Source: a virus. From it: a stretch of DNA of 39,036 nucleotides. The notes under the pieces are model-generated. The model saw only the letters and a list, made by a program, of their open reading frames with translations, searched no databases and was not told where the DNA came from. The DNA lies in IMG/VR virus record IMGVR_UViG_3300045988_121799, positions 1 to 39,036 of that record. One strand, given 5' to 3'. This document shows positions 11,789-18,299 of this stretch, piece after piece (positions within the stretch are counted from its first letter, which is position 1; every line of letters begins with the position of its first letter). The translations under genes were made by a program, and so were the position numbers.

Positions 11789-12766
11789 TCAAGCAGTTTC
11801 TGTTGTATCTACATCAACATAGATACTATCGATTTTGCCATCACGTCCATTCGGGAATACAAACACATCGGAAAGAGATCTGTTCTGATACAAATAGCCG
11901 TCCCCTTCTGTGTGCTGGCCCGGATTGAAATAGTAAATACTGGAAATCTTCGGCACAATCTTACAAGTCTGGCCACATGCCACAAGCACGTTAATTTTAT
12001 GGGCACCGGTTACAGCGTCACCCGCGCCTGTGGTAGATTCAGCTTTTTTCTTTCTGGGCTCAAAGCCACCGCCCTCAGGCTCCCAGTCAAACGCGTCGTA
12101 GAACCTCTCATCGTCGATGACTTCCATAACCGGTACTCCATCGATATCAGTCACTCTTGTCTCGATGCCCAGGCCACCTTCTGCGATCTGAGTCATCTCG
12201 ATCTTTCTGGTGAACTCTGTAGACTGCTCCAGGGCATCCATGATCACACTGGTCACATACATGACAAGGGAACCATTTGCCTTATACCGTCTCAGTTTTC
12301 CTTTCGCCAGGATATCTTTCAGCATACTAAACACCTTTGCTTTGGTATAACCTGATGCGGCAGTTTCGGAATGATATCCGTCAGTCTCCTGTGCTTTCTG
12401 TGCCACTTTGGAGAAAAACAGAGCGTCTGTCTCCGGCGCTACCTGGGTCTCCTCAAAAGTCCGGGAAATATTCTGGATGGAAGCGGTCGCATTGGTTTCA
12501 TCCACATCGGCCTGATCCACGAGGAAGGAAATGTCACGGTCATGGGTCAGAGTGAACGGAACATCTTTCTGAACGTAGTCGCCCTTATTCCATCCGCCGG
12601 TACGTTTATGGTTCTTATATCCAGATACACTCATCTGAGTGAAATGGAAAGTCTTTGCATCCAGCCACCTTACATTGCTGGTCACAAACGGGGAAGTTAA
12701 AGTTCCCTGAATCAGAATATCCAGGAGCTCGGGGCTCCACTGTTCTGCATAGTTTAAATTCGGCAT
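11789..12766 (-). CDS. Major capsid protein
   Basis: 325-aa ORF following the scaffold gene. Size and position are typical of SPP1-like / HK97-fold capsid proteins. Confidence 0.85.
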   Translation of the reverse strand: MPNLNYAEQWSPELLDILIQGTLTSPFVTSNVRWLDAKTFHFTQMSVSGYKNHKRTGGWNKGDYVQKDVPFTLTHDRDISFLVDQADVDETNATASIQNISRTFEETQVAPETDALFFSKVAQKAQETDGYHSETAASGYTKAKVFSMLKDILAKGKLRRYKANGSLVMYVTSVIMDALEQSTEFTRKIEMTQIAEGGLGIETRVTDIDGVPVMEVIDDERFYDAFDWEPEGGGFEPRKKKAESTTGAGDAVTGAHKINVLVACGQTCKIVPKISSIYYFNPGQHTEGDGYLYQNRSLSDVFVFPNGRDGKIDSIYVDVDTTETA

Positions 12767-12785
12767 AGCTTATGCACTCCTTTCT

Positions 12786-13439
12786 TTAATTCCAGCGGTT
12801 CCAGCGTTTTGTGGGAACTGCTGGCTGATTTGCTGTAGTCTGCTGCGGATGCTGTGCAGGATTTCCACCAGTCCCGATCTGTGTAAAACCGGTCTTGCCA
12901 TCCGTCTGGGGTTTCAGCGCCGGGATAGCTTCCAGAACTTTATTGATGGCTTCTTTTACCGCGTCGTCGCTGATATTGCCATCCTGTCCAACCACCTGGC
13001 TGAGATCTGCCATTTTCAAAACATAAGGAACCGTCTTAGCATCAATTCCCAATGATACAGCGGTCAGTGTGGCCGAAGTCTCGATTCTGGCCTGCTGGGC
13101 CATTGCCTGGGCGGCAGTAAGCTGACTCTGTGTCTCTGTGATCTGGTTCTGCATGCCCGCCACATCCGGCTGGTTGGCTGCCTGCTGCTGTTTAAATGCG
13201 GCGATTGCCTGTTCCATCTGTTCCTTCGAAAGCCCCTGTTGCTTAAAATAACCCTTCAGCACAGATTCCTCTGTTACCGTCTGCTTTCCTGCGATCAGAC
13301 TGGCCAGTTTATCATAATCGAACTGCGGGGCCTGTCCTGCTCCTGCCTGCGAGGTATTGGGTTCCTGGTTACTCCCGGTCTGAGAATCAGGATCATCTGC
13401 AAAGATCTGCAGCTTCATCGGAATTTTTCTGTTATTCAT
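12786..13439 (-). CDS. Scaffolding protein (DUF4355-like)
   Basis: N-terminal MKLQIFAD motif, and a Q/A-rich helical protein immediately upstream of the capsid gene. Confidence 0.8.
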   Translation of the reverse strand: MNNRKIPMKLQIFADDPDSQTGSNQEPNTSQAGAGQAPQFDYDKLASLIAGKQTVTEESVLKGYFKQQGLSKEQMEQAIAAFKQQQAANQPDVAGMQNQITETQSQLTAAQAMAQQARIETSATLTAVSLGIDAKTVPYVLKMADLSQVVGQDGNISDDAVKEAINKVLEAIPALKPQTDGKTGFTQIGTGGNPAQHPQQTTANQPAVPTKRWNRWN

Positions 13440-13563
13440 TTATCTGTGTCTCCTTTACAGTTTTTTCAGTGCTGTCTGCACCAGAACAGTTTTATGTGTG
13501 TCTCACAAAACAGTTGGTAACCCGGTGTCTCCGTGTAGTTTTACGCCTTCGGGCCAGAAGTAC

Positions 13564-13752
13564 TTAACCCGGTACTTCTTCGGGAGATACCGGATCACCG
13601 CCTTTCTGATGTTTCTCAGGTACGATCTCAACAAACCCAAGGACTCGGAGCTGTACTGCTCTCTCCTTACCAGTCTCGTAAGTCTCTCCCACTTTCCGGG
13701 TCACTAAATTAGCCTCCCGATCTCGGAAAGTTCTGGTTACTTTCACAATCAT
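13564..13752 (-). CDS. Hypothetical small protein, 62 aa
   Basis: ATG at 13752 preceded by AAAGGAGGTGAGCGC. The track ORF has an unsupported N-terminal extension. Confidence 0.5.
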   Translation of the reverse strand: MIVKVTRTFRDREANLVTRKVGETYETGKERAVQLRVLGFVEIVPEKHQKGGDPVSPEEVPG

Positions 13753-13820
13753 GCGCTCACCTCCTTTCTGGGTAAAAATGGGTATAAAAATACCACCGGC
13801 CATTTTTTTGACTGGTGGTA

Positions 13821-13994
13821 TTAAATATCTTTCCGGATAACTTTTTCGATATCATCAATGGTTATGCTGATTGTTTCCCAATCTGCGGGGGAATCTCCCA
13901 CATCTGCGATAAATGCTTTATTCTCAAACGCTTCCACAATAACTGCTTTTCTTCCATCCTTCAGGAGGACCGTATCATACTGTTTAATTTTCAT
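13821..13994 (-). CDS. DUF4926-like small protein, 57 aa (MKIKQYDTVLLKDGRKAVIVEAFENKAFIADVGDSPADWETISITIDDIEKVIRKDI)
   Basis: Hand translation; below the ORF-track size cut-off. GGAGG lies 7 nt upstream, and the ATG overlaps the MuF stop as ATGA. The sequence pattern (short hydrophobic beta-strands, D-x-V-x-L ... G-x-x-x-x-I-V-E) resembles DUF4926. Confidence 0.6.
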   Translation of the reverse strand: MKIKQYDTVLLKDGRKAVIVEAFENKAFIADVGDSPADWETISITIDDIEKVIRKDI

Positions 13995-15412
13995 TTCGTG
14001 ACCTCCTTATTTGTAACATATACACTCGTGAGCCGTTTATCATCCTTATCCTGAATCCAGCTCGTCAGTACGTTTGCTTCTTTCCCATTAGGACCTTTCA
14101 GTCTTATTACATACTCATACCGCATACCATATCCATTATCACCTTTTTCTACAAACTTGCTTTCGTCAAGATGTTCTTTAATATTTTCGATCAGATCTGA
14201 GTAATTATCGAGCGTGTAGCCCAGGGCTTTTTCAAAGGCCGTAGCCTTATCCGGAGCTTTTGAAAAATTCAACGCATATTCCGTGAATTTTCCTTCTGGC
14301 ATCGTGGCAAATTTCTGCAATTCCATTTTCATTATACCAGAGCCGGTGCCTTTTGCAACATTTTTCCATTTTTCTTGCTTCACCGCATATCGCTTCTGGT
14401 TCTCCGGATCCAGTGAGAAATCTGCCAGACGCCCAAACCTTTTCTCCTGCCGTTCCGCATATTGCTGTCGGGCTTCCTGTATGGCCTGATCTTCCAGGTT
14501 TCTGATTTCATCCGGATTGTACTTCGGATCAACGGTTGTAATCCCAGGGAAGTAGGTGGTATGGGAGTCTTTGCATCGTGGGTGGTACAACCCCGCTTCA
14601 ATAGCTTCACTCATAAGCGGATATAGGCCGTCTTTCCGGCTACCACCGCTCCAAACATCATCAATCATGATCTTCCCAACAAATGGCAGGCACTGCGGAC
14701 AGGGGCTTCCCCGTTTGTTCATGATAACCAGATGTAGGCCCCATTCCTGGCGTTTCATACCCTCCCCTTGCAAGTACGCCCGCTTGCTGGCTGTCCGGAT
14801 AGCCATATCGGCATAATCAGCAAGCGTATGGCGGGCTCCATTGGCATACACCACACAGTTTAAGCCCGCGGAAAGAAAATCCTTTGTGGCCATATCCACG
14901 GCTTTCTCATAAGTGCCCGCCCCGGTATTCGCATACACCTGAGTGTTATAAATCACCTTCCGGTACTGGTCATTTGCCCGCCGGAGAACTGCCGTCTCGG
15001 CCTTCTCCATATCGTCTGTGGTGGCCTTGACCAGGGCTTCCAGCTTCCGGTCATTCAGCTTGAAAAACTCCGCTGTACCACCTCTTGAGACTTTCTCCGC
15101 TGGAAAGCCTTTCTTGATAGCCCGGAGAATCGCTTCTTCCTGGGCCATCCCACCTTCGGTTCTGGCCGCCTGGATCAGGGCCTCAATTTTCGCATTGATA
15201 TCCCGGAACTGTTTTCCATACTTCTTCCGGTTCTTCTGCTTATATTTCTCTAGGGCTTTCAGCTGCAGGGCCTGCCACTGCTCCCACTGCATATCCTCAT
15301 TAACTTCCTCAAGCTTATGATGCTTCATGTTCCGGATCATGGAAGCAATCAGCTCATTTTCCACAGCTTCAAAGGCCGCCCCGATATCATAAACGTCATT
15401 TATCTTTGTCAT
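13991..15412 (-). CDS. Head morphogenesis protein (SPP1 gp7 / Mu F-like) fused to a C-terminal DUF6883-like domain
   Basis: 473 aa, directly after the portal gene (ATGA coupling). It has a MuF-type core including the HPRCKDS motif. The C-terminal ~112 aa read KFTEYALNFSKAPDKATAFEKALGY ... YGMRYEYVIRLKGPNGKEANVLTSWI ... RLTSVYV. Confidence 0.85.
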   Translation of the reverse strand: MTKINDVYDIGAAFEAVENELIASMIRNMKHHKLEEVNEDMQWEQWQALQLKALEKYKQKNRKKYGKQFRDINAKIEALIQAARTEGGMAQEEAILRAIKKGFPAEKVSRGGTAEFFKLNDRKLEALVKATTDDMEKAETAVLRRANDQYRKVIYNTQVYANTGAGTYEKAVDMATKDFLSAGLNCVVYANGARHTLADYADMAIRTASKRAYLQGEGMKRQEWGLHLVIMNKRGSPCPQCLPFVGKIMIDDVWSGGSRKDGLYPLMSEAIEAGLYHPRCKDSHTTYFPGITTVDPKYNPDEIRNLEDQAIQEARQQYAERQEKRFGRLADFSLDPENQKRYAVKQEKWKNVAKGTGSGIMKMELQKFATMPEGKFTEYALNFSKAPDKATAFEKALGYTLDNYSDLIENIKEHLDESKFVEKGDNGYGMRYEYVIRLKGPNGKEANVLTSWIQDKDDKRLTSVYVTNKEVTK

Positions 15413-16932
15413 TCATTCGCTGCACCTCCTGTGTCAAAACCCTGTACCGTAAAACCACCGCTCTCAAGATTTACAGCCGGTTCTTCCAGCTCCTGGATGC
15501 CCTGCTCTGCTTTCAACCTTGCGACTTCTTCCTGCTTACAATGTTCATCCAAGGAATCCCCATAGAGCTCTTCTACGCAGCGTTCAATACTCATAATACC
15601 GCTCTGTTTTGCTTTTGCCACAGTCTCCACCTGACTTTCAAAAGAAGGATTGGCGTATTCCCCGAACGGGATATTAACCTTCACTTCTTCTAAAGCCTGA
15701 TTGTGAAGGATGTTATTCGCGTTGATGCAGGCGGATACCACAGCCGGGAGCGTATTCTGCAATGCTTGCACAATAGCATTCCTGGTATATAACGTAGTCT
15801 TTTCCTTTTCGCGCTGTGCTTCTGCGTTGTCCAGTTTTTTTACGTCAATCCCAAGGGTGCTCGGGCTGATTACTCCCTGCAGGCAGAGATCCAACGCTGT
15901 ACAATAAGATGCCAGGTAACTCTCATGTGGAATCACAGGCTGATCTGTAACAACCTGATTTTTCTGTCCCTCACGCATGTCACCGTCGGCCGCAAAATAC
16001 CGATTATCAAACGGATTCGGTTGGATCAGGCCGCCAGTCTCGGGATCTTTAGGAATCAGGCATTCCGGAATATAGGTCTTCGCCCGCCCAGCCCTCAGAG
16101 CGTCCATCCACTGTGACCAAGTCTCGTCCAGAGCATCGTAGTTGTCCAATTTTCCATCGTAAATACTTCCACCTCTTGCTTCATATTTTGCAGATTCAAA
16201 AATCATAAACGGTACAGCCAGCATCACACTTTCATCAAAGGTGGTGTCCTTAAGCTGTTCCGTAGCTTTCAAAACCTTGAGATCAACCATTTTGTTCCCC
16301 TGATACAGTTCATTGATGACGTAGCCATATCCATACCGTTCATTCAAGACGTATATCCTACCTTTTTCCTTGTACGGTGTTTTAAAGATAATCTCGCGGA
16401 TTCTGTCCCGGTGCGTTACAAATTCCACCCGGTCCCCTGGGTACCATTCCAGTATCGGATAGGCACTTACCTGCGTGTCTATAGTCACTTTAAAGGCTCC
16501 ATCACCGATATACAGTGCCTCTTTTAATGCGCTCTCAATCTTCTGTGAAAACTTATTGTCTTCAGCAATTTTCTGCCAGACAGCCTCCTGCCCCGGGGAT
16601 TCAAACTCAAAATCATCCATATCCGGCAGTACCACGAAAGACAGCGTGCGGACAATCAGCCCCGGCAGCCCCGTGTGGATTTTCCGCATATCCATTCCCT
16701 GAGTTGATTTGCTAGACCAGAAGTTATTTTTGTCCACTAATTCTCGATTCTGCTGGTAAATCTGCTCCAGTTCATTTCCATCCCCACGGTACCAGATCCG
16801 GTTACGGATCGCGTTTCCCTCAAAGTCCAGTGTTTCATTGATCTGGAAGTTATAAGGACTTGCCGGAAGTATATTCAACCAGCTTCTCACACTGTTTTTA
16901 ATATTTTCGTTCAACTTTTCCATCCACTTCAC
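15409..16932 (-). CDS. Portal protein (SPP1 gp6-like)
   Basis: 507-aa ORF between TerL and the MuF-like gene, with overlapping start and stop codons on both sides. Confidence 0.9.
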   Translation of the reverse strand: MKWMEKLNENIKNSVRSWLNILPASPYNFQINETLDFEGNAIRNRIWYRGDGNELEQIYQQNRELVDKNNFWSSKSTQGMDMRKIHTGLPGLIVRTLSFVVLPDMDDFEFESPGQEAVWQKIAEDNKFSQKIESALKEALYIGDGAFKVTIDTQVSAYPILEWYPGDRVEFVTHRDRIREIIFKTPYKEKGRIYVLNERYGYGYVINELYQGNKMVDLKVLKATEQLKDTTFDESVMLAVPFMIFESAKYEARGGSIYDGKLDNYDALDETWSQWMDALRAGRAKTYIPECLIPKDPETGGLIQPNPFDNRYFAADGDMREGQKNQVVTDQPVIPHESYLASYCTALDLCLQGVISPSTLGIDVKKLDNAEAQREKEKTTLYTRNAIVQALQNTLPAVVSACINANNILHNQALEEVKVNIPFGEYANPSFESQVETVAKAKQSGIMSIERCVEELYGDSLDEHCKQEEVARLKAEQGIQELEEPAVNLESGGFTVQGFDTGGAANE

Positions 16933-18299
16933 CTTCTCTGTTCCTCCGTTTCAAATCCAATCATCTGCCGGTACGGAATCCAGCCATATTGCTGGGCATT
17001 GATTGTATGATCATTCCGGTCTTCCGGAACGTCCTTGTCCTCATTCCAGCTGTATTTTTCCATCTCTGCCAGGTGGTTTGTACAGGTATCCACAACCAGG
17101 TAGCATCTCTGCTGTATCCATCCGAGCTGCAGCTTGATCCGGTCTAAAATTTCAACCTTCTTGTATGACTCAATGAAATTATACAGACAGCCTTTCAGGC
17201 GTTTGTACTTTCTCAGTTCTGTAATCGTAGCCGCGTCCGCTGAGTCCACGAATACATCCTTCGCAAAGCCCCATTCCTGTCGGCACTGTTCCAAGAAATC
17301 AACAAGCTTCACGGCCGTATCTGAAGGTGCTAACGGCTGATCCAGCTCCGCGTTGCTATAAACCTTCTCAGCTAAAGTAAGCAGCTTCCTGTCCTCTGTG
17401 ATTCCCTGGAACAACATTGCGATAGTATCCGGAGACTTTGAAGAGTATGACGTATCCACGCCGCAAGTAAACTTCCGGAACCGGATTCTGCCCGCCTGCA
17501 TCTCTTTTTTTACCCACGCAGCAGTAACAACATGTTTCTTTCTGTTGAAATTTGGAAAAATCAATCCAGTTGCTTTTCCCCTGAGACCCTGGATCTTATT
17601 CTTCCAGATCTTCGTGCCCTTTGGGGTGTTCTGGATGATACGCCGCTTCTTCTCTTCCGGAAGGCCCGCGTTATCATCAAAAGAAAAGAACCAGTGAACC
17701 CAGCCGGGTTTTGGTTCTTCTTGTAATTCATCTATGATTTCCTGCGGCGTTCCGTCTCTCCATCTGGGGAGCGGCCTGCTGCAGTTGATATATTCCTTGT
17801 AGACGTCCAGCGACGGATCATCGGGGTTCAGCGTGGCCATGAAGTAATCACAGCGCATGGAAGCCTCGCGGACAAAATCTATATCCGCCGTGTTGATCTC
17901 ATCGATGTACAGACAGCCGTACTGACCACCCAGGGCGTCTTTCCACTTCCGCTTATTGCCATAACCAACGACAAAAATGATCTTGTCCCCGTCGCCCGTA
18001 TGGAACAACAGGTGCGGCATCTTATACTCTCCCGATCCGTTGCCGTTGTACTGAACCAGGATGCCGAAATCATCCAGGATACCAAGATCTTTCTGGATGA
18101 TGTTCTTCTCTGCGGCTCCGGTATCATCCGCCGCAAGGATGTGCAGCTTCTTCGGGCTCTGGGCAACTTTCAGCATGAACTTGAATAGCCCCACCGTCGT
18201 TTTGCCGGCCGCTGTCGTGCCTTCCAGGAACTCCACAGGAGCATTACACCGAAGAAACGCTTTATATTTTTCTGACAGCAGCAGTCTTTCTGTACTCAC
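16929..18299 (-). CDS. terL: Terminase large subunit (PBSX/Terminase_3-like)
   Basis: Walker A motif GTTAAGKTT and a Walker B-like LYIDE. 456 aa. GTG start overlaps the terS stop by 1 nt. Confidence 0.92.
   Translation of the reverse strand: MSTERLLLSEKYKAFLRCNAPVEFLEGTTAAGKTTVGLFKFMLKVAQSPKKLHILAADDTGAAEKNIIQKDLGILDDFGILVQYNGNGSGEYKMPHLLFHTGDGDKIIFVVGYGNKRKWKDALGGQYGCLYIDEINTADIDFVREASMRCDYFMATLNPDDPSLDVYKEYINCSRPLPRWRDGTPQEIIDELQEEPKPGWVHWFFSFDDNAGLPEEKKRRIIQNTPKGTKIWKNKIQGLRGKATGLIFPNFNRKKHVVTAAWVKKEMQAGRIRFRKFTCGVDTSYSSKSPDTIAMLFQGITEDRKLLTLAEKVYSNAELDQPLAPSDTAVKLVDFLEQCRQEWGFAKDVFVDSADAATITELRKYKRLKGCLYNFIESYKKVEILDRIKLQLGWIQQRCYLVVDTCTNHLAEMEKYSWNEDKDVPEDRNDHTINAQQYGWIPYRQMIGFETEEQRR

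Follow-up and report, generated by a model that had tools for sequence, protein, structure and literature searches.

In nuclease colicin operons of the ColE3/E9 type, the immunity gene lies directly downstream of the toxin gene; it is transcribed together with the toxin and, in addition, from a separate promoter in the 3′ part of the toxin gene. MuF toxins with small downstream immunity ORFs were described in temperate Firmicutes phages in 2017 (Jamet et al., PMC5576092); the MuF superfamily takes in PF06152 as well as PF04233, MuF3 and MuF4 (PMC5576092). The available text of an August 2026 preprint reports an association of DUF6883, DUF4926 and Phage_Mu_F with a toxin–immunity organisation (bioRxiv 10.64898/2026.08.28.747851). 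CdiA-CT of Klebsiella pneumoniae 342 (Kp342) is a tRNase of the BECR fold with the active site K157/Y160/H170/R252/T255 (PMC9086364).

The window analysed here is the whole stretch of 39,036 nucleotides of IMG/VR record IMGVR_UViG_3300045988_121799. The locus listed in Table 1 is quite likely to be a MuF-family polymorphic toxin with its immunity gene, carried by a temperate siphophage of gut Firmicutes. Both the MuF toxin class and the DUF6883/DUF4926/MuF link are already known, and the locus is a new example. The phage is judged to be temperate because it carries a serine integrase gene (35703..37088; PHROG 95, 1e-93) and a repressor-like gene (33855..34256), and because relatives were found in bacterial genome contigs. 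Region 12700–17000 gave no megablast match to INPHARED phage records, so the phage is one without an annotated isolate record; the toxin domain likewise gave no tblastn match in INPHARED phage records.

Table 1. Features of the MuF::toxin locus and the basis on which each was assigned.
Feature	Position in the window	Strand	Basis
MuF::toxin gene, 473 aa	13991..15412	minus	ORF list, Pfam PF06152 + PF21814, PHROG 581
MuF-superfamily N-terminal domain, Phage_min_cap2 / 'MuF2', aa 12–325	14438..15379	minus	Pfam PF06152
Charged helical linker, aa 326–362, ending in pre-toxin motif SGIMKMELQKFA	14327..14437	minus	sequence
Predicted promoter in the linker-coding stretch, immediately 5′ of the toxin domain	14331..14358	minus	consensus scan
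C-terminal DUF6883 / BECR-fold domain, aa 363–473, putative RNase toxin	13994..14326	minus	Pfam, AlphaFold2, Foldseek
Shine–Dalgarno AAGGAGG of the small ORF, located in the 3′-terminal part of the toxin gene	14002..14008	minus	sequence
57-aa acidic partner, putative immunity protein	13821..13994	minus	ORF sequence, PHROG, homologues
Intrinsic-terminator-like hairpin and U-tract; the hairpin begins within the small ORF's stop codon	13782..13822	minus	RNA fold

The MuF::toxin gene is preceded by terminase genes and, directly upstream, by the portal gene (15409..16932; PHROG 533, 3e-101), which overlaps the MuF start by 4 nt; a scaffold gene lies downstream. Its product matches the minor head protein family PHROG 581 (2e-77). 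The initial annotation had described a MuF-type head protein with a DUF6883-like C-terminal extension, and both domains were found above the Pfam cut-offs: PF06152 with E 9.5e-35 and 120.6 bits (cut-off 26.3), PF21814 at aa 369–467 of the full protein with E 9.2e-15 and 55.3 bits (cut-off 27). The hmmscan check proposed for the extension was likewise positive, the isolated 111-aa C-terminus scoring 60 bits on DUF6883, above the gathering threshold (27), and the match covers model positions 8–109 of 110. NCBIfam and PADLOC returned nothing meaningful for the MuF fusion, the 57-aa ORF or the next ORF.

The MuF2 N-terminal domain is presumed to be the carrier for portal binding and capsid targeting. 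Gene calls on eight near-identical metagenome contigs show the same architecture in seven; one of the eight (L004) has a 448-aa variant of the fusion. The MuF protein of Anaerostipes phages AC844P1-3 is 64% identical over aa 8–346 and differs at the C-terminus. The closest isolates thus pair the same MuF with another C-terminus and another small ORF, which indicates that the cargo on this carrier is swappable. At a further locus (L009) the MuF gene is split by a 1.39-kb insertion, in which Rfam found no group I or group II intron. On different carriers, the DUF6883 domain is repeatedly preceded by SG[IT]I[KE] and NLQxFA motifs in the linker region; LQxF[A/G] is present in 22 of 96 proteins.

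The C-terminal domain was modelled with AlphaFold2 from a 41-sequence alignment (pLDDT 92.6); a model of the full 473 aa, made without an alignment, was unusable (pLDDT 44.8). The domain model has three helices and a four-stranded sheet (H12–18, H25–35, H39–52, E59–63, E68–77, E83–93, E96–105), and the modelled fold is that of the BECR group, with a four-stranded antiparallel sheet and N-terminal helices. The top Foldseek matches in the PDB were chains A/C/E/G of 6CP9 (CdiA-CT Kp342), with TM 0.64 and probability 1.00 at a modest E-value (1e-3) and 16–17% identity; weak, lower matches were of RelE/HigB type and included HigB2 and RelE-like HP0894. PDB sequence searches with the toxin profile and the partner profile gave nothing significant, the only matches being weak ones of KOW/SH3-type ribosomal proteins. 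Judging from the model, the domain is probably an RNA-cutting RNase, and its substrate is probably tRNA; the available text of the preprint likewise infers an RNase for DUF6883, there BECR-Tox3 (bioRxiv 10.64898/2026.08.28.747851). The initial view that the pair had no known function thus gave way to that of a domain modelling as a BECR-fold RNase nearest to a CDI tRNase.

Conserved residues of the DUF6883 domain are K375, Y379, K389, R460 and T462, with no conserved His, Glu or Asp. Our guess is that these five form a Lys/Tyr/Arg/Thr site like that of CdiA-CT Kp342. The dN/dS of the domain is 0.017. Its pI is 5.47 here, i.e. not basic, with a family median of 6.81.

The 57-aa ORF was recovered in the sequence as first proposed, with AAGGAGG 7 nt upstream of its ATG (13994–13992), which overlaps the MuF stop TGA (13993–13991) as ATGA. 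By this arrangement the partner is translationally coupled to the MuF::toxin gene; of 80 related loci, 76 have an SD-like motif ahead of the partner's start. The ORF is a real gene: 194 contigs carry the exact protein, 381 close homologues were found, its dN/dS against a relative is 0.175 (purifying selection) and it matches PHROG 34731 (4e-17). It had been called hidden; it is in fact predicted by metagenome gene callers and is present in nr as a hypothetical protein. The partner is acidic (pI 4.69; family median 4.51).

Its suggested likeness to DUF4926 held in part. Pfam gave no match for the 57-aa ORF even at E ≤ 10, and by the Pfam criterion it is not a DUF4926 member. It is 56% identical (pairwise E 2e-15) to P0315, which itself scores 28.7 bits on DUF4926 (PF16277; cut-off 29.1, E 8.5e-7, positions 16–56 of 57), and through this protein the partner is assigned as a remote relative of DUF4926, an SH3-like family. 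The cut-off of 29.1 bits was reached by none of the individually scanned homologues, among which P0315 alone came near, and two family-wide DUF4926 scans (best E-values 8.5e-7 and 6.1e-6) likewise stayed below it. At E ≤ 0.01, DUF4926 was matched by 27 of 81 partners of DUF6883 genes and by 18 of 139 family representatives; the other recurring matches of the partner family were to SH3/KOW-type domains only. The best 120 matches of a partner-profile search in a 5.8-billion-protein set were all close relatives without Pfam labels.

Toxin and partner together make a conserved module of two genes that occurs on many carriers as well as alone. Among 138 DUF6883 loci drawn from phage contigs and bacterial genomes, 132 have this partner downstream, 87 of them with the same 4-nt overlap. 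This neighbourhood survey, which includes stand-alone chromosomal pairs such as one in Oscillospiraceae, shows the two genes to be near-obligate neighbours, in line with the initial annotation, and the partner is kept in relatives. The carriers among 96 distinct proteins were Phage_Mu_F (35), Phage_min_cap2 (9), VG15 (3), and DUF5662 (24) and DUF7211 (27), these last two overlapping; the remainder stand alone. DUF5662/DUF7211 carriers, about a quarter of all, sit in replication-type rather than head modules, so the function of the domain does not depend on virion delivery. Partner genes without a DUF6883 domain were also observed in Streptococcus satellite phages.

The terminator-like hairpin behind the partner gene has a folding energy of −16.9 kcal/mol (z = −3.97) and is followed by UUUUUAUA. 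Equivalent hairpins lie 3′ of the partner gene in L024, L026, L028, L034, L035, L040, L049, L105 and L132. In AC844P2 a hairpin is also found 3′ of the small ORF downstream of the non-DUF6883 MuF. Since it follows a locus with different cargo there, the terminator is assigned to the phage backbone, and its inclusion in a mobile cassette was rejected.

The predicted promoter consists of TTGCAA (14358–14353), a 16-nt spacer, TG (14339–14338) and TATAAT (14336–14331); it scores 10/12 to consensus, plus the TG, and is of sigma-70-like, extended −10 type. Canonical TTGACA-17-TATAAT promoters occur at stand-alone DUF6883 genes. The element was considered as a relic of such a promoter and this was rejected, as the −10 of the fused genes overlaps the ancestral start codon position, whereas the promoter, SD and ATG of the stand-alone genes sit further upstream.

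It is possible, though somewhat short of probable, that the DUF6883 cassette holds its own extended −10 promoter in the linker coding sequence, kept by synonymous-site selection across unrelated carriers. On the transcript made in a lysogen, the immunity gene would then be the one conserved ORF preceded by a ribosome-binding site of its own, and the transcript would end at the terminator; cells with the prophage would have standing immunity to an RNase that the capsid delivers and that disables non-lysogenic competitors. Such an embedded promoter would apparently be new.

An unlikely but serious alternative is that the element is not a promoter, that it reflects a conserved peptide (VAK...SGII) or a cassette recombination junction, and that translational coupling in the late operon is the sole source of immunity. 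In its favour stand the homology of the loci and the element's overlap with the recurring peptide motif, but the third codon positions of the element at the −35, TG and −10 are nearly invariant (T at −21, −3 and 0; A at +3), while the second base of the middle −10 codon, which changes the amino acid, varies freely (ATA, AAA or ACA, giving Ile, Lys or Thr). The promoter profile was built from related loci with rows chosen by match score, which favours the alternative; the TG motif, however, lies outside that score and is present in about 90% of the profiled genes. A scan of the window alone gave 3 promoter-like sites, as against 3.2 expected by chance. Across fused genes, in contrast, the same element was found in the same place at 10/12 or better in 38 of 60, as compared with 0–5 of 60 for control windows of the same genes, and the related MuF with a different cargo has no promoter element at the MuF–cargo junction.

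In the preferred explanation, which sees here a MuF polymorphic toxin and its immunity gene, the 57-aa protein would bind the toxin domain 1:1 and neutralise it in the producing cell. At a few copies per head, in the manner of SPP1 gp7, the MuF domain would carry the toxin through the portal into the procapsid. Along with the DNA the toxin would then enter the next cell and cut RNA transiently where the partner is absent. Linker promoter, partner SD and terminator would make up a small transcription unit, from which lysogens could produce the immunity protein without full-length toxin and so be shielded from the toxin of sibling virions. Packaging in the virion and delivery on infection are inferred by analogy with SPP1 gp7 (summarised in PMC5576092). 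Points that weigh against this explanation are the modest Foldseek E-value at low identity, the lack of a conserved His, Glu or Asp, the non-basic toxin domain, the partner scores below the DUF4926 cut-off and the DUF5662/DUF7211 carriers in replication-type modules.

Several features of the locus are those of MuF polymorphic toxins: the MuF-superfamily N-domain, the position after the portal gene, the small downstream ORF, the temperate phage, and a C-terminal domain that also occurs in other contexts (MuF1, MuF2, VG15 and DUF5662/DUF7211 carriers, and alone) and whose fold matches a CDI tRNase. The reading of an injected effector plus neutraliser, put forward in the initial annotation, agrees with the published model of these toxins (PMC5576092).

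It is improbable that the module acts mainly inside the lysogen, as a toxin–antitoxin, abortive-infection or prophage-addiction unit to which the MuF fusion is secondary, with the embedded promoter giving a leaderless or short-leader mRNA for free toxin, started at M363, together with antitoxin. The M363 ATG (14326–14324) lies 5 nt after the −10, and a Met at leaderless-start distance is found here and in L024, L025, L031, L035 and L049; the Met is not conserved, however (Q, E, S or I in L040, L050, L028, L019 and L026), no SD precedes the toxin domain, and many fused genes have their ancestral start codon overlapping the −10, where it would stay untranscribed. Promoter and terminator do bracket exactly the toxin domain and the partner, and stand-alone pairs with TTGACA-17-TATAAT occur in bacterial chromosomes outside prophage head modules. 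Against this, PADLOC gave no match, and 47 of the 96 carriers are MuF-type or VG15, which indicates selection for capsid delivery.

Highly improbable is a non-toxic injected effector for host takeover or counter-defence (RNA-binding, or cutting RNA very specifically) that aids the incoming phage or biases lysis–lysogeny, with the small protein as chaperone or packaging adaptor: Iyer et al. 2017 (as cited in bioRxiv 10.64898/2026.08.28.747851) suggested that MuF-linked BECR domains serve phages as effectors directed at host systems, a lysis–lysogeny role has been proposed for mildly toxic MuF cargo and the one or two MuF copies expected per capsid are consistent with a subtle effect (PMC5576092), and the toxin domain is not basic, but the partner accompanies the domain in non-phage chromosomal loci and on non-capsid carriers, which ties its role to the domain and not to packaging, the tight 4-nt coupling to a small acidic partner is a classic toxin–immunity signature, and orphan partner genes in satellite phages are as expected of protective immunity genes.

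MuF toxins are common in human-gut prophages, and a delivery route or ecological role has been demonstrated for none. The present locus offers a tractable example: its phage is found in many gut metagenomes, the BECR domain is small and confidently modelled, the partner has 57 aa, and close relatives isolated on Anaerostipes caccae allow genetics. The embedded promoter, if real, would account for the immunity of lysogens to the injected toxin of their own phage and would open to testing whether such toxins act in kin discrimination between lysogens and non-lysogens; in a phage it would parallel the immunity promoter of colicins, and it would be the first regulatory mechanism to be proposed for MuF toxins. 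If the promoter is not real, the finding mainly confirms a recently published annotation.

With the MuF toxins (PMC5576092) the locus shares a gene right after the portal, the PF06152 'MuF2' N-domain with a variable C-terminal toxin-type domain, an ORF of <150 aa directly downstream, a temperate human-gut phage and same-MuF relatives with other cargo. DUF6883 is not found in the available text of that article, and an embedded immunity-gene promoter is not described in the same text. From BECR-Tox3 of the preprint (bioRxiv 10.64898/2026.08.28.747851), which has the same domain, the same downstream partner family and frequent Phage_Mu_F fusion, it differs in that the carrier is Phage_min_cap2 and not PF04233 and that the partner has diverged beyond what the Pfam DUF4926 model recognises; the available text of the preprint makes no mention of an internal promoter, a terminator or DUF5662/DUF7211 carriers.

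CdiA-CT/CdiI of Kp342 (6CP9) is the best structural match, with helices followed by a four-stranded sheet. It too forms the C-terminal toxin part of a polymorphic toxin and is followed by an immunity gene, and the Lys/Tyr...Arg/Thr residues occur in similar order. Identity is 16–17%, however, His170 of Kp342 is replaced here by Lys, and the Kp342 toxin is delivered by the CDI (type V secretion) route of Gram-negative bacteria; its immunity protein CdiI-Kp342 is also larger, with one helix and nine strands, whereas the partner here is a 57-aa SH3-like protein. Colicins of the ColE3/E9 type are unrelated proteins, plasmid-borne, SOS-regulated and released as bacteriocins of Enterobacteria, but their operons have the same plan, with the immunity gene right after the toxin and a promoter of its own, which at the present locus is a predicted one.

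The 473-aa product of the MuF fusion gene matched Phage_min_cap2 (PF06152) over aa 12-325 (E 9.5e-35) and DUF6883 (PF21814) over aa 369-467 (55.3 bits; cut-off 27) in Pfam, and its 111-aa C-terminus taken alone scored 60 bits on DUF6883. Its PHROGs class was minor head protein, and those of the neighbouring genes were portal and scaffold. The initial annotation had described a MuF-type head protein with a DUF6883 C-terminus and an overlapping 57-aa ORF, and both were recovered at its coordinates.

Features of the MuF fusion locus and of the surrounding phage genes in the window
Feature	Coordinates	Strand	Remarks
MuF fusion ORF	13991..15412	-	473 aa
Portal gene	15409..16932	-	adjoins the MuF fusion, whose start lies 4 nt inside the portal end
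57-aa ORF (partner)	13821..13994	-	ATG overlaps the MuF stop (ATGA); AAGGAGG 7 nt upstream
Promoter-like element, TTGCAA-16-TGgTATAAT	14358-14331	-	consensus scan; just 5' of the toxin domain
Hairpin and U-tract		-	starts in the partner stop codon; RNA fold -16.9 kcal/mol
62-aa ORF	13564-13752	-	own SD; between terminator and scaffold gene
Serine integrase	35703..37088	+	

The closest cultured relatives were the Anaerostipes caccae phages AC844P1-3, with a MuF protein 64% identical to that of the window over aa 8-346 only; the C-terminus was unlike the window's, with an HNHP motif and then a different, 45-aa acidic ORF. Because these phages share the MuF protein but differ in C-terminus and small ORF, the cargo is exchangeable on a conserved MuF carrier. 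In AC844P2 (L023:225-1988; L-numbers denote fetched relative loci) the other C-terminus spans ~190 aa with an HNHPxxxxxxSxxD motif and may be read as JAB/MPN-like; this C-terminus, the 45-aa acidic ORF and the terminator hairpin are all annotated as hypothetical. Proteins of 715-870 aa (L035:823-3321, L040, L050, L042, L098) had 350-400 additional aa separating the MuF domain from the toxin domain and may be polyvalent, multi-cargo head proteins. In L009 (L009:4444-5829; also L010-L013) the MuF::DUF6883 gene was interrupted exactly between window residues 277 and 278 by a 1386-nt insertion whose three ORFs include one for an HNH homing endonuclease (NUMOD4/HNH_3/NUMOD1). The two MuF halves keep the same frame and the insertion looks like an intron; no group I or II intron was found in it with Rfam.

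The small ORF was confirmed as a genuine gene. The exact protein was present on 194 contigs, had 381 close homologues and 311 cluster representatives (profile search, 1.84 billion proteins) and matched PHROG 34731; in comparison with the relative L024 its dN/dS was 0.175, that of the toxin domain being 0.017. Nor is it hidden, as had been stated: gene callers annotated it in 8/8 related contigs examined, and it appears in nr under the name hypothetical protein.

The likeness to DUF4926 held as remote homology and failed as a direct match, Pfam giving none for the window ORF even at E<=10; its close homologues had no precomputed Pfam domain. DUF4926 was matched at E<=0.01 by 18 of 139 diverse partner-family representatives, in which the only other recurring matches were to SH3/KOW-type domains, and by 27/81 distinct partners adjoining DUF6883 genes. 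The bridging partner-family protein P0315, 56% identical to the window ORF, scored 28.7 bits on DUF4926 (model positions 16-56 of 57; cut-off 29.1 bits) and lies after a DUF6883 C-terminus, with which it overlaps by 4 nt; a scaffold gene comes next. Remote homology is supported, and we conclude that the small ORF represents a divergent branch related to DUF4926, outside the family by its Pfam score. The partner domain was duplicated in tandem in P0187 (246 aa) and embedded in a larger protein in P0306 (423 aa). Homologues of 55-62% identity were carried by five Streptococcus satellite phages (Javan344, L022:957-1325; Javan321, 323, 325 and 339) and may be orphan immunity genes; tblastn with the window toxin domain against 50,697 phage records gave no match.

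The C-terminal domain was modelled with AlphaFold2 from a 41-sequence alignment (pLDDT 92.6) as three helices and then a sheet of four strands. The best Foldseek matches in the PDB were four toxin-length chains of 6CP9 (TM 0.64, probability 1.00, E about 1e-3); those that followed, RelE/HigB-type toxins among them, were far weaker. In 6CP9, CdiA-CT of K. pneumoniae 342 is in complex with CdiI; this toxin, a BECR-fold tRNase, has helices followed by four strands and the active site K157, Y160, H170, R252 and T255 (PMC9086364). Polar residues conserved over 96 distinct DUF6883 proteins were K375, Y379, K389, Y399, N403, K423, Y432, N442, K444, T450, W452, R460 and T462; they follow one another much as in the Kp342 active site, to which we infer they may be equivalent. 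DUF6883 is equated with 'BECR-Tox3' in a preprint dated 29 August 2026 (bioRxiv 10.64898/2026.08.28.747851), which describes DUF4926 as its common downstream neighbour and Phage_Mu_F as a frequent fusion partner; that assignment was reached independently and agrees with ours.

Loci encoding relatives of the domain (80 from phage contigs and 45 from bacterial genomes, plus loci fetched earlier) were scanned with HMMs of toxin and of partner. The partner was near-obligate: it was encoded in the same orientation -100 to +200 nt downstream of 132/138 toxin ORFs, with an exact 4-nt overlap in 87 of these pairs, bearing out the common adjacency stated in the initial annotation. An SD-like motif preceded the partner in 76/80 loci. 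Partners were acidic (median pI 4.51) and toxin domains near neutral (median pI 6.81; window 5.47). The carriers of 96 distinct toxin proteins, in overlapping counts, were Phage_Mu_F (35), Phage_min_cap2 (9), VG15 (3), DUF5662 (24), DUF7211 (27) and Peptidase_Mx (3), the last three often together in one protein; the remainder, stand-alone or with a short N-terminal extension, had no carrier domain found. Stand-alone pairs lay between housekeeping genes on Oscillospiraceae chromosomes, and DUF5662/DUF7211 versions near replication genes. Because pairs occur on varied carriers and stand-alone, the role of the partner goes with the DUF6883 domain rather than with capsid packaging; the module behaves as a polymorphic-toxin C-terminal module with an immunity gene.

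About a quarter of the DUF6883 proteins (L016:3648-4582, L019:4001-4570, L075:2377-3324 and similar) had DUF5662 and a 25-aa DUF7211 motif (HHGxKGxKWGVRNGPPYP) instead of MuF, apparently a second type of carrier, as yet uncharacterised, for the same toxin; one, of 316 aa, is named zinc metallopeptidase in BFVD. An IS110-family transposase (L016:4695-5906) lay between one DUF6883 gene and its 58-aa partner, ~1.6 kb apart.

The promoter-like element was not significant within the window alone. In 60 fused genes, the 120 nt 5' of the domain held an element scoring at least 9/12 in 51, at least 10/12 in 38 and at least 11/12 in 16, versus 3-12, 0-5 and 0 for control 120-nt windows of the same genes. 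Its position just upstream of the domain was the same across relatives, with a common codon phase in 47/51 elements and a 16-nt spacer in 42/51. The -35 T, T and G, the TG (left out of the selection score) and -10 T1, A2, A4, A5 and T6 were conserved at 88-100%. The conserved T(-21), T(-3), T1 and A4 are third codon positions, flanking third positions holding only 0.1-0.4 bits, and the middle -10 codon varies in its second base (ATA/AAA/ACA; Ile/Lys/Thr). This information profile, drawn from related loci and from rows partly chosen by score, reads as that of a promoter rather than of a peptide. A non-functional element is the competing reading, favoured by the single-window result and disfavoured by the control counts. 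The AC844P2 MuF, with its different cargo, was without the element at the MuF-cargo junction; stand-alone toxin genes had a canonical TTGACA-17-TATAAT promoter, then SD and ATG. Pre-toxin peptide motifs (SG[IT]I[KE], NLQxFA, LPRYxxAVIP) stood directly 5' of DUF6883 on different carriers, LQxF[A/G] in 22/96; their region (window 14327-14365, minus strand; equivalent in L024-L147) overlaps the predicted promoter and may mark a recombination junction or processing site.

Downstream of the predicted start the partner retains its own SD, and no SD or conserved start codon was found for the toxin domain. In a rival reading the module would act inside the lysogen, in toxin-antitoxin or abortive-infection fashion, with the toxin domain made from a leaderless mRNA; Met363 of the window would suit it, and the Q, E, S or I at that place in other loci would not. 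Equivalent hairpins followed the partner in most MuF-fused loci. A hairpin as part of the cassette was ruled out because in AC844P2, where the MuF gene has other cargo, the same hairpin comes after the small ORF that succeeds this gene, making it a backbone feature. The predicted promoter, partner SD and hairpin would form a small transcription unit from which, in lysogens for instance, immunity could be expressed and toxin not.

The window is a temperate phage, with a repressor-like gene, endolysin, DNA polymerase, primase-helicase and terminase subunits besides the integrase, and near-identical contigs of 18-41 kb came from many metagenomes. The 62-aa ORF was called in all related contigs and had weak Arc-like repressor PHROG matches only (E 0.002).

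From the literature on SPP1 gp7 and MuF toxins (PMC5576092), the MuF part would bind the portal, be packaged in one or two copies and leave the capsid with the DNA. The domain would be an RNase that the partner neutralises 1:1 where the phage is produced and that is active in newly infected cells without it, the predicted embedded promoter giving lysogens their protection. A further, less likely rival is that the injected domain is an effector without toxicity and the small protein its chaperone.

The initial observation is confirmed and its interpretation supported: every defining feature of MuF polymorphic toxins that sequence analysis can address is present at the locus, as are DUF6883 membership and a BECR fold. 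That toxin class dates from 2017, and a 2026 report covers the specific DUF6883/DUF4926/MuF association. The predicted embedded promoter and the carrier range, with no mention in the text examined of the 2017 paper or the preprint, appear to be additional details. Only the predicted immunity promoter sets the locus apart from what is usual in the field. In nuclease colicin operons a comparable promoter for the immunity gene lies within the colicin gene, and the locus, with its predicted one inside the toxin gene, is like them in this respect.
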